From the sequence record PP889479.1: a DNA stretch of 64,000 bases, one strand, 5' to 3'. Source of the stretch: Klebsiella phage phi1_146029. Below, in pieces: positions 27,600-30,662 of this stretch (position 1 is its first letter; each line of letters begins with the position of its first letter). The notes below the pieces were generated by a model. The model was not told the DNA's origin. It saw only the letters and a program-made list of their open reading frames with translations, and made no database searches. A program made the translations under genes and the position numbers.

Positions 27600-27974
27600 A
27601 TGTTTGATAAAGCAACCCGTCTGAAACTGCGTTTCTCGTCCGCTAAAGGTGATCTGTCGGTTGAGCAGGTGTGGGACCTGGGCCTGACTTCTCTGAACGA
27701 GATGGCGAAAGGTCTGAGCCGCGAACTGAAAGCCGCTACGATCGACGATGAAGATTTCATCGGTAACAACACATCCGTCGACACTCAGCTGCTGCAACTG
27801 CGCTTTGACATCGTCAAAAGCATCATCAACACCAAGCTGAAAGAGCGCGATGACAGCCTGTCCGCTGCGGAAAAACGTGAGCACAACCAGGCCATCCTGG
27901 AACTCATCAAGAAGAAACAGCAGGAAGAGCTGGCGGGTAAATCTGTTGAAGAACTGCAAGCCCTGCTGAAATAA
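27600..27974 (+). CDS. Hypothetical coiled-coil protein (124 aa). Its 3' end plus terminator is duplicated downstream of namat.
   Basis: ORF behind 'GAGGATACAAAA'. C-terminus '...VEELQALLK'. Confidence 0.5.
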   Translation: MFDKATRLKLRFSSAKGDLSVEQVWDLGLTSLNEMAKGLSRELKAATIDDEDFIGNNTSVDTQLLQLRFDIVKSIINTKLKERDDSLSAAEKREHNQAILELIKKKQQEELAGKSVEELQALLK

Positions 27975-28020
27975 ATCCGTCAACTCCGGTCTTAACAACC
28001 CCGCCCTGTGCGGGGTTTCA
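27938..28020. repeat. Left copy of a direct repeat: 27-nt 'TGTTGAAGAACTGCAAGCCCTGCTGAA', about 28 nt divergent, then terminator hairpin ACCCCGCC-cTGT-GCGGGGTTT
   Basis: Identical 27-mer and near-identical hairpin recur at 30566..30641. Confidence 0.7.
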
Positions 28021-28035
28021 ATTTGTGTATCGCAG

Positions 28036-28041
28036 TATAAT
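28036..28041 (+). promoter_or_regulatory. -10-like TATAAT upstream of the Prs-like gene; -35 is poor
   Basis: 'cgcagTATAATacatatgtaaactaaacta', 32 nt before the ATG. Confidence 0.3.
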
Positions 28042-28072
28042 ACATATGTAAACTAAACTATGGGGCTACGTT

Positions 28073-28927
28073 ATGTTTCGTTTGAGATTGAACGACCAAG
28101 ATGTGTTCTACAAACACTTCACCTTTCCAGGCGGTGAAGAACATATCAAGATTCAAAAGGCGGGTATCCCTGTTGGTAAAATCCAGACAGTGGTAATTGA
28201 CGCCCACATTAAATCGTCAGCAGATTTCATTGAGCTGGCACTGTTGGTGAACGCCGTGCGCGGCCTGGGTAATGTCGACCGACTGACAACATTTCATGCT
28301 TATATCCCTTATTTTCCATATGCCCGTCAGGATCGTCATTGCGACTTTGGTGAACCTCTTTCGGTGAAGTGGGCAGCAGAGTTCATCAATAGTATGAACT
28401 TTGACCGTGTGGCGATCAAAGACCCTCACAGCCATGTTGTGTCTTCTCTGATCAACAACGTCCATGTTGTCCCGCAAGATTACATTGCTCGCCAGTACCT
28501 GGGATGGTTCATTCGGGGCAACAACGCTGTGTTGGTAGCTCCCGACGGCGGCGCGGCGAAGAAGACTGAAACCCTCAGCCTATCGCTGGATGGCGTTCCT
28601 GTTGTCTACGGACATAAGAACCGCGACACCAAGACGGGCGAGATCATTGGGGTGAGTATTACAAACCCTGAACTGATCAAAGACCGCTATCTGGTTGTGG
28701 TAGATGATATCTGTGACGGCGGGCGAACGTTTGTTGAGCTGGGCAAAGAGCTTCAGAAGCACGAGCCTAAGCACATGACCCTCTTCGTTACCCACGGCAT
28801 TTTCAGCAAAGGTCTCTCTGTGTTCGACGGGATCTACGATGCTGTGTATGCCGACACTGTCTGGTGGGAGAACATCACCGCCGACGGTCTTCCATTCAAA
28901 ACTGAAAATACAGGACGTGTAAAATGA
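28073..28927 (+). CDS. PRPP-synthetase-family pyrophosphokinase; candidate Adps (ADP-ribose pyrophosphate synthetase) of the NARP1 pathway
   Basis: Prs motifs: 'IPYFPYARQDRH' (compare Prs 'IPYFGYARQDRR') and PRPP-binding loop 'LVVVDDICDGGRT' (Prs 'VLVDDMIDTGGT'). 284 aa, shorter than cellular Prs. The stop overlaps the start of the NAMPT-like gene. Confidence 0.65.
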   Translation: MFRLRLNDQDVFYKHFTFPGGEEHIKIQKAGIPVGKIQTVVIDAHIKSSADFIELALLVNAVRGLGNVDRLTTFHAYIPYFPYARQDRHCDFGEPLSVKWAAEFINSMNFDRVAIKDPHSHVVSSLINNVHVVPQDYIARQYLGWFIRGNNAVLVAPDGGAAKKTETLSLSLDGVPVVYGHKNRDTKTGEIIGVSITNPELIKDRYLVVVDDICDGGRTFVELGKELQKHEPKHMTLFVTHGIFSKGLSVFDGIYDAVYADTVWWENITADGLPFKTENTGRVK

Positions 28928-30576
28928 GCATGCGCCACTTAGATCCAATCCATGCAATCGACTTCTACAAATCAGGGCACATCTATCAATTCCCTGAAGG
29001 TAGCGAGCTGGTGTTCTCCAACGGAACTCCACGCTCCAACAAACTGTTCAACTCCCACCTGCCGAAGAACGGCGTGGTGGTCTGGGGTATCCAGGGATTC
29101 ATGACCTGGTTCCACGAACTGTTTGATGAAGCGTTCTTCCAGCGCCCAAAGGCCAAGGTGCTGAAGAAGTATGCCCGCCGAATGAACAAAGTTCTCGGAC
29201 CAGGCCGCGTTGGGACAGAGCATATCGAAGCCCTGCACGACCTCGGCTACCTGCCTATCGAAGTCCGCGCTCTACCCGAAGGCACCATGTGCCCGTATGG
29301 TGTTCCGGTATATGTGATGTTCAACACATTGCCGGAGTTCTACTGGCTGACCAACTATCTGGAGACGGTGTTCAGCTCTGAGATCTGGAAGCCGATGACG
29401 AACGCAACCATTGCCCTGCACTACAAGGCGCTGATGGTGAAAGCCGCTATCGCTACAGGCGTGTCGCCGGACCATTGGTTCATCGACTACCAAGGCCACG
29501 ACTTCTCCTTCCGTGGTATGAGCGGGTGGCATGACGCGGCGTCTTCCGGTTCTGGCCATCTGGTGTTCTTCAAAGGCACCGACACCAACCCTGCCCTGGA
29601 CTTCGTTGAAGAGTATTATGGCGCGGATATCGATGAAGACTATGTCGTTGCTGGCTCTGTTGCAGCCACCGAACACGCCGTGATGTGCATGGGCACGAAG
29701 GATGGCGAGTTCGAAACCTTCGAGCGCCTGATTTCTAAAGTCTATCCGGACGGGATTGTCAGTATCGTGTCTGATGCATGGGACTACTGGCAGGTCATCG
29801 ACGACTATCTGCCGCGCCTCAAAGATATCATCATGGCGCGTAATGGCAAAGTTGTGATCCGTCCCGACTCTGGTGACCCGGTGCATATCGTCGGTGGTTA
29901 TCGCGTCGAAGAATTTTGCAATGAGCAGGATTTTTACGATAACGACCCACGTGAAGAAACTGAAGTTATCTATCTCAAAGAAGAAAACAGATACCATATT
30001 CTGGAACAATATCAGTTTAATCAGATCGGGGAAGAGATTTCTCGTTCAGAAGCGGTCGGTTCTATCCAGCGCCTATGGGAGATCTTTGGCGGAACCCAGA
30101 CCGAAACGGGCCACTTCCTGTTGGATGAGCACATCGGCCTGATCTACGGTGACTCCATTACCCTGAGCCGTGAAGATCAGATCTTTGCTCGTCTGGTTGA
30201 ACGGAATTTCGCTTCCATCAACGTAGTGTTCGGTATCGGTTCCTATACTTACCAGATGAACACCCGTGATAGTACCGGGACGGCGGTGAAAGCAACGGCT
30301 GGGAAGGTCAACGGTGAATTCCGTGAGATTTTCAAAGAACCGAAGACTGACAAAGGTGGTACGAAGAAATCTGCGCGTGGTTTCCTTAAAGTCATTAAAG
30401 ACTCTCAGGGTAAACTAGTGTTGGTTGATGGTATCACGTTTGACCAGGTGCAAGACGCAGATAATCAGCACCAACTGGTTTACCGTGATGGCAAGTTCTT
30501 CAATACTCAGACTCTGGAAGAAGCGCGTTTTCGTGCCGCTCCTCTGGTGGAAGAATTGGCATCACAAATATGTTGA
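28924..30576 (+). CDS. Nicotinamide phosphoribosyltransferase family (NadV/NAMPT-like); candidate Namat of NARP1
   Basis: N-terminus 'IDFYKSGHIYQFPEGSELVF' matches the NAMPT 'DSYK..H..QYP' signature. 550 aa. Translationally coupled to the Prs-like gene (ATGA). Confidence 0.7.
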   Translation: MSMRHLDPIHAIDFYKSGHIYQFPEGSELVFSNGTPRSNKLFNSHLPKNGVVVWGIQGFMTWFHELFDEAFFQRPKAKVLKKYARRMNKVLGPGRVGTEHIEALHDLGYLPIEVRALPEGTMCPYGVPVYVMFNTLPEFYWLTNYLETVFSSEIWKPMTNATIALHYKALMVKAAIATGVSPDHWFIDYQGHDFSFRGMSGWHDAASSGSGHLVFFKGTDTNPALDFVEEYYGADIDEDYVVAGSVAATEHAVMCMGTKDGEFETFERLISKVYPDGIVSIVSDAWDYWQVIDDYLPRLKDIIMARNGKVVIRPDSGDPVHIVGGYRVEEFCNEQDFYDNDPREETEVIYLKEENRYHILEQYQFNQIGEEISRSEAVGSIQRLWEIFGGTQTETGHFLLDEHIGLIYGDSITLSREDQIFARLVERNFASINVVFGIGSYTYQMNTRDSTGTAVKATAGKVNGEFREIFKEPKTDKGGTKKSARGFLKVIKDSQGKLVLVDGITFDQVQDADNQHQLVYRDGKFFNTQTLEEARFRAAPLVEELASQIC

Positions 30577-30641
30577 AGAACTGCAAGCCCTGCTGAATAG
30601 CCAGCTGCCTTCGGCGCGATAATAAACCCCGCCATGTGCGG
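30566..30641. repeat. Right copy of the direct repeat (27-mer plus terminator AAACCCCGCC-aTGT-GCGGGGTTT)
   Basis: See the left copy. The 27-mer begins inside the namat stop codon. Confidence 0.7.
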
Positions 30642-30662
30642 GGTTTATTTTAGGTGAAGAAT

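Follow-up and report, generated by a model that had tools for sequence, protein, structure and literature searches.

Modular shuffling at promoter-early stem-loop (PeSL) elements, together with the formation of mini-circles, has been described in T4-type phages (Arbiol et al., 2010, PMC2839356; Comeau et al., 2014, PMC4122927). NARP1 is a two-gene operon, Adps/Namat, which rebuilds NAD+ from ADP-ribose (ADPR) and nicotinamide (Osterman et al., bioRxiv 10.1101/2024.02.11.579819). Genes for nicotinamide phosphoribosyltransferase (NAMPT) and for a ribose-phosphate pyrophosphokinase (RPPK) are variably present in Agtrevirus, 8 of 14 genomes carrying them (Sorensen et al., 2023, PMC10791037; review PMC11721090). 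Here, we analyzed a 64,000-nt stretch of Klebsiella phage phi1_146029 (PP889479.1; hereafter the window), in which a NARP1-type cassette is bracketed by two copies of the 3' end and terminator of a 124-aa gene, gene A. The repeat is probably the scar of a recombination that placed the cassette between gene A and the following genes, module B, in one sub-lineage of the genus Taipeivirus.

The locus shares several traits with the PeSL systems. Non-essential modules lie in a plastic region bounded by composite elements of terminator hairpin and putative promoter, and one of these elements contains the left junction in the window, where a hairpin T-tract is followed by the putative promoter. Among close relatives, whole modules have been inserted, deleted or replaced at these boundaries, with six arrangements found here, and the inserted module is flanked by direct repeats of the boundary element. 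In addition, excision and re-integration of a circle would yield exactly the product seen in the window, and such a mini-circle route has been proposed for PeSL. Unlike in the PeSL systems, however, the phage family is Ackermannviridae, 32 nt of the repeated unit are coding, and the right joint falls into a 7-nt microhomology between two gene ends, outside the regulatory cassette. In the promoter a perfect -10 is combined with a -35 region that does not resemble sigma-70, and there are 3-6 promoter and 5 hairpin copies per 64 kb compared to about 50 per genome for PeSL. Mini-circles have been shown for PeSL, whereas the present case is read from sequence only. With its right joint inside coding sequence, a poor -35 region and a low copy number, the locus falls outside the definition of PeSL, and by analogy it appears to work like PeSL-type shuffling without belonging to that family.

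With NARP1 as described elsewhere (bioRxiv 10.1101/2024.02.11.579819; Namat structure, PMC12774641) the window shares an operon of a Prs-like followed by a Nampt-like gene, but its allele has a diverged segment of ~180 nt (29916-30097) and an extra C-terminal Cys contributed by the joint. As in Agtrevirus, the same two genes are present or absent among relatives: seven phages share the gene order of the window, at least three more have two copies of the repeated unit, and 12 are without the cassette. In contrast, the excerpts of the Agtrevirus reports (PMC10791037; PMC11721090) cover presence and absence only, with no change of position, duplicated junction, joint or empty-site sequence. New here are the repositioning of a NARP1 cassette in Taipeivirus, with its joint resolved to the base, the use of a gene-end relic as stop codon and terminator of the cassette, and the corresponding empty sites in phages that share 98% identity with the window. 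No new mechanism or system is involved; the case is an instructive and fairly ordinary example of phage module shuffling.

The duplicated unit and empty sites in related phages

A first-pass annotation, made from the letters of the window alone, had described the cassette as bracketed by a direct repeat and a hairpin in a T4-like genome. The bracketing was confirmed, with all features on the plus strand, but the genome was misplaced: across the region, Klebsiella phages 0507-KN2-1, Croc_ER14, Madison, UPM 2146, Magnus and others reach 95-98% identity, with 98% for 0507-KN2-1 and relatives, which assigns the source phage to Ackermannviridae, genus Taipeivirus, as a 0507-KN2-1-like phage. A 32-nt direct repeat (27939-27970 and 30566-30597), 31/32 identical, encloses the cassette and contains the exact 27-mer TGTTGAAGAACTGCAAGCCCTGCTGAA (27944-27970 and 30571-30597). 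In a repeat scan, it was the longest high-identity direct repeat in the whole window, hence far beyond chance. Each copy is followed by a 22-nt hairpin, AACCCCGCC(C/A)TGTGCGGGGTTT, at 27997-28018 and 30625-30646 (21/22 identical). Taken alone the hairpin is weak evidence, since a hairpin identical to copy 2 (AACCCCGCCATGTGCGGGGTTT) occurs at 10547-10568 and the 22-mer belongs to a terminator family of five members in the window, with looser members at 4165-4192 and 14912-14939.

Repeat copy 1 represents the last 32 nt of gene A (27600-27974), an open reading frame (ORF) of 124 aa without a Pfam match, and forms its functional coding 3' end (…KSVEELQALLK*). Gene A is conserved in Ackermannviridae, and its homologs adjoin a 678-aa gene in all relatives. 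It is followed by the copy-1 spacer ATCCGTCAACTCCGGTCTTAAC (27975-27996) and by hairpin copy 1, the predicted terminator of gene A, which has an 8-bp GC-rich stem within a 60-nt stretch that folds at -16.2 kcal/mol. Repeat copy 2 is a non-coding relic of the gene A 3' end. In its spacer (30598-30624) the former stop region has degenerated (TAGCCAG…), and hairpin copy 2, predicted to be the original gene A terminator, has a 12-bp perfect stem and the T-tract TTTATTTT (63-nt stretch, -25.2 kcal/mol). In the following, the last ~32 nt of gene A together with the stop codon, a spacer of ~22-25 nt and the hairpin are referred to as unit U.

The cargo consists of two adjacent, co-oriented genes overlapping by 4 nt. 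The first, of the Adps type, encodes a Prs-like protein of 284 aa (28073-28927; Pfam PF00156, PF13793) that matches phosphoribosyl pyrophosphate (PRPP) synthetases in the PDB at 1e-17. The second, of the Namat type, encodes a NAMPT-like protein of 550 aa (28924-30576; PF04095). Its best PDB matches are the Namat crystal structures 9W5W/9W5X (Namat-NAD+, Namat-nicotinamide; E 2.7e-135), while canonical Nampt structures match at only about 1e-51. By these matches the cargo is a NARP1-type Adps+Namat operon, with a putative activity and role in anti-defence. The adps gene is preceded by a predicted promoter-like motif, TTCAAT-N13-TATAAT (28017-28041), of which the window holds three exact copies (23910, 28017, 31807) and six at one mismatch or less, compared to 0.47 expected. 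The motif is kept upstream of adps in all relatives and travels with the cassette in all lineages, and it is the putative promoter that would drive the cassette. Its -10 is perfect and GGGTTT occupies the -35 position; a generic sigma-70 scan made no call there. This generic sigma-70/terminator scan, covering 24-36 kb, was not used as evidence, as its counts were not above those of shuffled sequences and it missed the full hairpin stems. Downstream of copy 2 follows module B (30654-31796), which comprises a DUF3268 zinc-finger gene (30654-31040; PF11672) and a gene of the gp49/66 family (31041-31796; PF13876).

To compare gene orders, nine window proteins were mapped by tblastn onto 18 loci, and annotations were consulted in addition. 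Six arrangements were found, all between the conserved 678-aa and 124-aa (A) genes on one side and a 732-aa gene on the other. In type T1, A-DUF3268-gp49-Adps-Namat, module B lies between gene A and the cassette; this order occurs in May (Taipeivirus), SW16-7 and P46FS4 (Agtrevirus) and D5lw (Kuttervirus), and Bullseye (Taipeivirus) has the same order without DUF3268 (T2). Type T4, A-Adps-Namat, was assigned tentatively to KFM-TASP06, an N-scaffolded partial assembly. The window and seven phages covering the query fully have the order A-Adps-Namat-relic-DUF3268-gp49 (T5; Magnus, UPM 2146, P01 and 0507-KN2-1 were read), and at least Menlow, Trex and K5lambda5 have the T5 order without DUF3268 (T6). 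Type T0, A-(DUF3268)-gp49-118 aa without a cassette, is found in HMGUkp5, K751 and ten others and also in Serratia phage IME250. E. coli phage KWBSE43-6 is without both modules. Every Ackermannviridae phage examined has one unit U directly after gene A. As the cassette lies downstream of gp49 in three genera of two subfamilies, the order A-U-B-cassette is likely to be the ancestral one, and by the same comparison the order of the window is derived and confined to a tight clade.

A single-copy junction of gene A, spacer, hairpin and DUF3268 is present in May and HMGUkp5. The first-pass annotation had proposed to look for an empty site in relatives, and such sites exist. When gene A was joined directly to the sequence following repeat copy 2 to obtain a synthetic cassette-less query, HMGUkp5 covered this junction to 100% at 98.0% identity in one piece, and eleven further phages covered it except for the DUF3268 gene. 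No Adps or Namat was detected by tblastn in the full 155-kb HMGUkp5 genome (best E 0.25), which contains the 32-mer once. The 29 Klebsiella records with the cassette are all accounted for without any of the 12 empty-site phages. The cassette-less order A-B-118 is also present in the more distant phage IME250, indicating that it is older than the two-copy clade. The kind of observation named at the outset as speaking against an insertion scar was not made: in none of the related phages does the duplication occur in the absence of the cargo.

Relic copy, foreign spacer and the two joints

To follow the history of the two copies, every copy of unit U from 19 genomes was aligned. In May, HMGUkp5 and others, the A/B junction can be aligned collinearly with copy 2 over the 32-mer, the spacer, the hairpin and the DUF3268 ribosome-binding region. 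Copy 2 differs from the HMGUkp5 unit by a few changes at the former stop codon and by one base at the 3' end of the spacer (…ATAATA vs. …ATAATG). Repeat copy 1 is invariant in all aligned Taipeivirus relatives, while in copy 2 UPM2146 has an in-frame TAA, P01 has lost 1 nt and Trex shows a C>T change, and the stop is gone in all DUF3268-plus phages. Since copy 1 never varies while copy 2 collects changes, copy 2 is evidently an unconstrained, decaying relic of the old gene A/terminator junction. The existence of empty sites and the match of this decaying copy to the ancestral junction bear out the earlier suggestion that recombinational insertion has left a scar at a pre-existing gene/terminator junction. 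It had also been observed that ORF 30425-30622 re-encodes VEELQALL, which holds (translation …YVEELQALLNSQLPSAR). As a candidate gene this ORF was rejected: it overlaps namat out of frame, and the frame of the relic is broken in UPM2146 (TAA) and P01 (frameshift).

The sequence between repeat and hairpin, previously described as about 28 nt of unrelated sequence, is better understood as two diverged allele classes, of 22-27 nt, of one spacer. The copy-1 spacer matches that of KpS110 at about 14/21 positions without an indel ('short' class: KpS110, Kuttervirus, Agtrevirus), compared to about 11/21 matches and a 3-nt indel against HMGUkp5, which represents the local 'long' class. The copy-1 spacer is accordingly of a foreign allele class. 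T5 and T6 phages have the same copy-1 spacer. Their copy-2 spacers differ by type, being HMGUkp5-like in T5 and closer to May/Bullseye in T6.

At the right joint (AAATATG, 30566-30572), the end of namat is fused to the 3' end of gene A within a 7-nt microhomology, AAATCTG. The parental sequences are CAAATCTG|ATAA at the namat end and TAAATCTG|TTGAAG in gene A (…TAAATCTGTTGAAG…), and the product in the window reads …CAAATATGTTGAAG…. In lineages with the ancestral order, namat ends in …CAAATCTGATAA (protein …SQI*) and is followed by its own hairpin, AAGGGGAGG..CTCCCCTGTTTT, which is absent from the window after namat. The joint removed the namat stop codon and terminator and added one Cys codon. 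The second 27-mer does not start inside the namat stop, as had been stated, but at the last sense codon TGT (30571-30573), and the stop TGA (30574-30576) corresponds to bases 4-6 of the repeat, so that both codons come from repeat copy 2. Hairpin copy 2 is predicted to terminate the cassette now, in place of the native namat hairpin. The sequence CAAATATGTTGAAG is common to all eight two-copy genomes read (seven phages and the window), which argues for a single origin of the joint, and the joint CAAATATG|TTGAAG is common to all T5 and T6 phages. At the left junction, the T-tract of hairpin copy 1 passes directly into the cassette promoter, GGGGTTT|CAATTTGTG…TATAAT, a structure that matches the junction of gp49 and cassette in May, Bullseye, SW16-7 and D5lw. 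A possible scar of a former cassette position upstream of the 118-aa gene (31797-31860) was considered and dropped, as only similarity to the promoter family (TTCAAT-N13-TATAAT, TTAAAC) was found.

Cassette and flanks differ in their relationships. The flanks are 70-76% identical to those of Agtrevirus/Kuttervirus and 90-99% to those of May/Bullseye. The corresponding values are 90% and 83% for Adps, and 93-94% and 88% for the 5' half of namat. A sliding-window comparison displayed the same incongruence of cassette and flanks over 28116-29715. Judged from these values, the identity of the cassette is decoupled from that of its flanks and the cassette has its own history. Gene A (27600-27974 and homologs) itself occurs in at least two 5' allele classes, with a 3-nt indel near position 340. 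This patchwork of alleles is independent of the cassette arrangement among phages that are 98-99% identical in the neighboring 678-aa gene, indicating that homologous exchange is frequent among these phages and marking gene A as a hot spot of local recombination. An attempt to map the left crossover by gene A polymorphisms was uninformative, as the patchwork does not track the type of arrangement.

Placement of the cassette and alternative explanations

The order in the window lineage can be written A-U*-cassette-U'-B, where U* is the copy-1 unit and U' the relic copy. The explanation we favor, and consider probable and the most economical, is that a cassette-less, HMGUkp5-like recipient recombined with a donor that had a short-class U* directly before the cassette. 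It would take one illegitimate joint, mediated by microhomology, from the namat end to the gene A 3' end, plus one homologous crossover within A/U or to the left of it. An equivalent route would be a circle [U*-promoter-adps-namat], closed at AAATCTG, that integrates Campbell-style into U by a single crossover. That T5 and T6 share the joint and have different copy-2 spacers could reflect entry of the same module into two backgrounds or a later exchange via the 32-mer as right arm. Because the cassette is old in the family and usually lies one module further downstream, the event would have been a relocation or re-acquisition and not a first acquisition. The cassette would thereby form a self-contained transcription unit that borrows the old terminator of gene A. 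The flanking direct repeats of 32 and 22 nt should permit its precise loss, and with the gene A 3' end the cassette would bring along its own right-hand arm of homology, by which it could be transferred into any phage with gene A.

Several observations weigh against this explanation. The base A in the joint differs from the C of both inferred parents, so that an additional mutation or an unsampled allele is needed. The order of gene A, one single U and cassette was seen only in KFM-TASP06 and its sister TTM-TASP117, both of them N-scaffolded partial assemblies which carry the local spacer class and not U*, and the donor architecture is hypothetical for this reason. KFM-TASP06 (L002, PV588648.1), whose A-cassette-118 aa order is unique, has long N runs inside gene A and split tblastn matches for namat and the 732-aa gene; as a donor-type A-U-cassette genome it was set aside on account of the N runs, the partial-genome label and the local spacer class, and is given as a tentative observation only. 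A donor of the copy-1 spacer was not found in single-copy context in IMG/VR or metagenomes. The exact-pattern scan of IMG/VR returned only Menlow, itself a two-copy phage, and a degenerate pattern gave 35 matches in metagenomes, which are attributed to chance because none encoded a protein of the locus or carried the 32-mer or hairpin. Furthermore, this explanation does not account for the changes that cluster around the former copy-2 stop in DUF3268-plus phages, and the polarity was derived by parsimony and distribution only.

More tentatively, and as a possibility to which we give clearly less credence, the gene A 3' end, the terminator and the adjoining promoter may together act as a portable recombination handle that renders the NARP1 cassette quasi-autonomous in Ackermannviridae. 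The cassette could then loop out as a circle of ~2.6 kb, or be deleted precisely between the repeats, and re-enter a co-infecting phage that has gene A. If true, this would explain why the same joint precedes two different recipient-type spacers and why the cassette is 90-94% identical across genera with flanks at 70-76%, and gain and loss of the cassette would track the NAD+-depleting defences of the hosts.

An exchange within one genome is the strongest competitor of recombination between two lineages, but we regard it as unlikely. Replicating phage DNA is concatemeric and recombinogenic, and unequal exchange between sister molecules or within a concatemer of an A-U-B-cassette genome could yield A-U-B-C-U'-B-C (C, cassette), from which the first B and the second C would be deleted. 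The same microhomology joint would be needed and no second lineage, and the left junction, T-tract|CAATTTGTG, could come from a deletion between the G(G/C)GTTT ends of the terminators. However, three illegitimate events would be required instead of one. The copies of U would also have been identical at birth, yet the 32-mer of the relic has 0-2 changes while the spacer differs by ~50% and a 3-nt indel and belongs to another class. In addition, the cassette allele is unlike that of congeners keeping the A-B-C order, and the junction of gp49 and the 118-aa gene is common to the cassette-less phages, including the distant IME250.

It is distinctly improbable that the polarity is the reverse, with the empty-site phages being recent revertants of two-copy phages whose cassette was removed through homologous recombination at the flanking repeats. 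The 32- and 22-nt direct repeats are 2.6 kb apart and the phage encodes UvsY-like and other recombination functions according to its annotation, so that deletions of this kind should be possible, and the deletion product would resemble the empty site. But had the crossover taken place in the 32-mer, gene A would now be followed by the copy-2 spacer, whereas the empty sites read AAATAAATCCGCTGCC… with the stop intact and differ from both relic types, AATAGCCAGCTGCC (DUF3268-plus) and AAATAACCCGCTGCCC…CCTTGTG (DUF3268-minus). A crossover in the hairpin would place the copy-1 spacer before module B, which was seen in no phage. The distant Serratia phage IME250 has the cassette-less order as well, and even if some phages were revertants, the formation of the joint would be left unexplained.

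The first-pass annotation had further called the cassette mobile. This applies insofar as it was moved by recombination, apparently general and illegitimate, as the relocation of an old cassette; no dedicated mobility genes or terminal inverted repeats were found. Direct repeats do flank the cargo, and homing endonucleases are common in Ackermannviridae. Still, we see very little chance that transposition with target-site duplication, site-specific integration or endonuclease homing was responsible. Neither the cassette nor its immediate surroundings contain a gene for a transposase, integrase or endonuclease; the cassette holds only the two metabolic genes and has DUF3268 and gp49/66-family neighbors, and the repeat scan revealed no terminal inverted repeats at its ends besides the hairpins. 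The duplicated unit of ~80 nt with its heterologous middle is unlike a target-site duplication, and the right joint falls on a microhomology within coding DNA. A conserved terminator family combined with coincidental coding similarity, with no event at all, can practically be dismissed: the hairpin 22-mer is indeed reused (10547, identical to copy 2; five-member family), but with 31/32 identical positions the 32-mer is unsurpassed as a repeat in the 64 kb, copy 2 follows the ancestral A/B junction collinearly in repeat, spacer, hairpin and DUF3268 ribosome-binding region, and single-copy relatives are without the cassette at the gene A/B position.

Further features of the region and implications for Ackermannviridae

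Within namat, the segment 29916-30097 (~180 nt), encoding …NEQDFYDNDPREETEVIYLKEENRYHILEQYQFNQIGEEISRSE…, was unlike any other lineage in the sliding-window comparison. Against the alleles of May, Bullseye, Agtrevirus and Kuttervirus, positions 29916-30004 are only 36-41% alignable and 30005-30097 reach 63-69%, and the cassette of the window is 15 nt shorter than these alleles. The segment falls into the gap between two stretches that match solved Namat/Nampt structures, and may be a lineage-specific replaced surface insert. In Limestonevirus, all that is left of namat is a 3' relic of 333 nt, located at the downstream position (Dickeya phage LIMEstone1, L019 5985-6317). In LIMEstone1 and 18 other Dickeya phage records the gene is reduced to its last ~309 nt, with 89% identity to the window, and the 110-aa 'nadV nicotinamide phosphoribosyl transferase' of Limestonevirus is most likely a deletion relic and not a functional enzyme.

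The DUF3268 gene (30654-31040) behaves as an independent presence/absence module which slots exactly between the hairpin T-tract and the start of gp49/66, and it varies among cassette-bearing phages (the window vs. Menlow) as well as cassette-less ones (HMGUkp5 vs. K751). Positions 20148-20171 match the Cys-rich core of this gene (30767-30790) over 24 nt (83%), TTGTGAGCTTTGCGA…, which suggests a second, paralogous zinc-finger gene ~10 kb upstream. In HMGUkp5 the 118-aa homolog is split (L016 4937-5291; tblastn residues 1-101 and 86-118) and the annotated coding sequence is shorter, suggesting a frameshift. The hairpin terminator sequence is reused around the genome; its copy at 10547-10568, within the segment 10546-10573, follows a 443-aa ORF (9194-10525) of the size of the annotated major head protein of HMGUkp5. 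Finally, a 27-nt leader, ACTYTGAAATGAAGGAACTAYATTATG, which ends in a start codon, is repeated at 13176-13202, 13480-13506, 49323-49349, 55511-55537 and 62021-62047, and constitutes a family of near-identical ribosome-binding/leader sequences upstream of several genes.

The locus provides a base-pair-resolved case of loss, regain and repositioning of a counter-defence operon (NARP1) among nearly identical Klebsiella phages that are candidates for therapy. With regard to phage therapy, Taipeivirus relatives at 98% identity may differ in their capacity to resist NAD+-depleting host defences, and the flanking repeats predict spontaneous loss of the cassette during propagation. With this case, the shuffling of modules at boundary elements, so far known from T4-type phages, is extended to Ackermannviridae, and it suggests that a fragment of a gene end can turn into the stop codon and terminator of a cassette.

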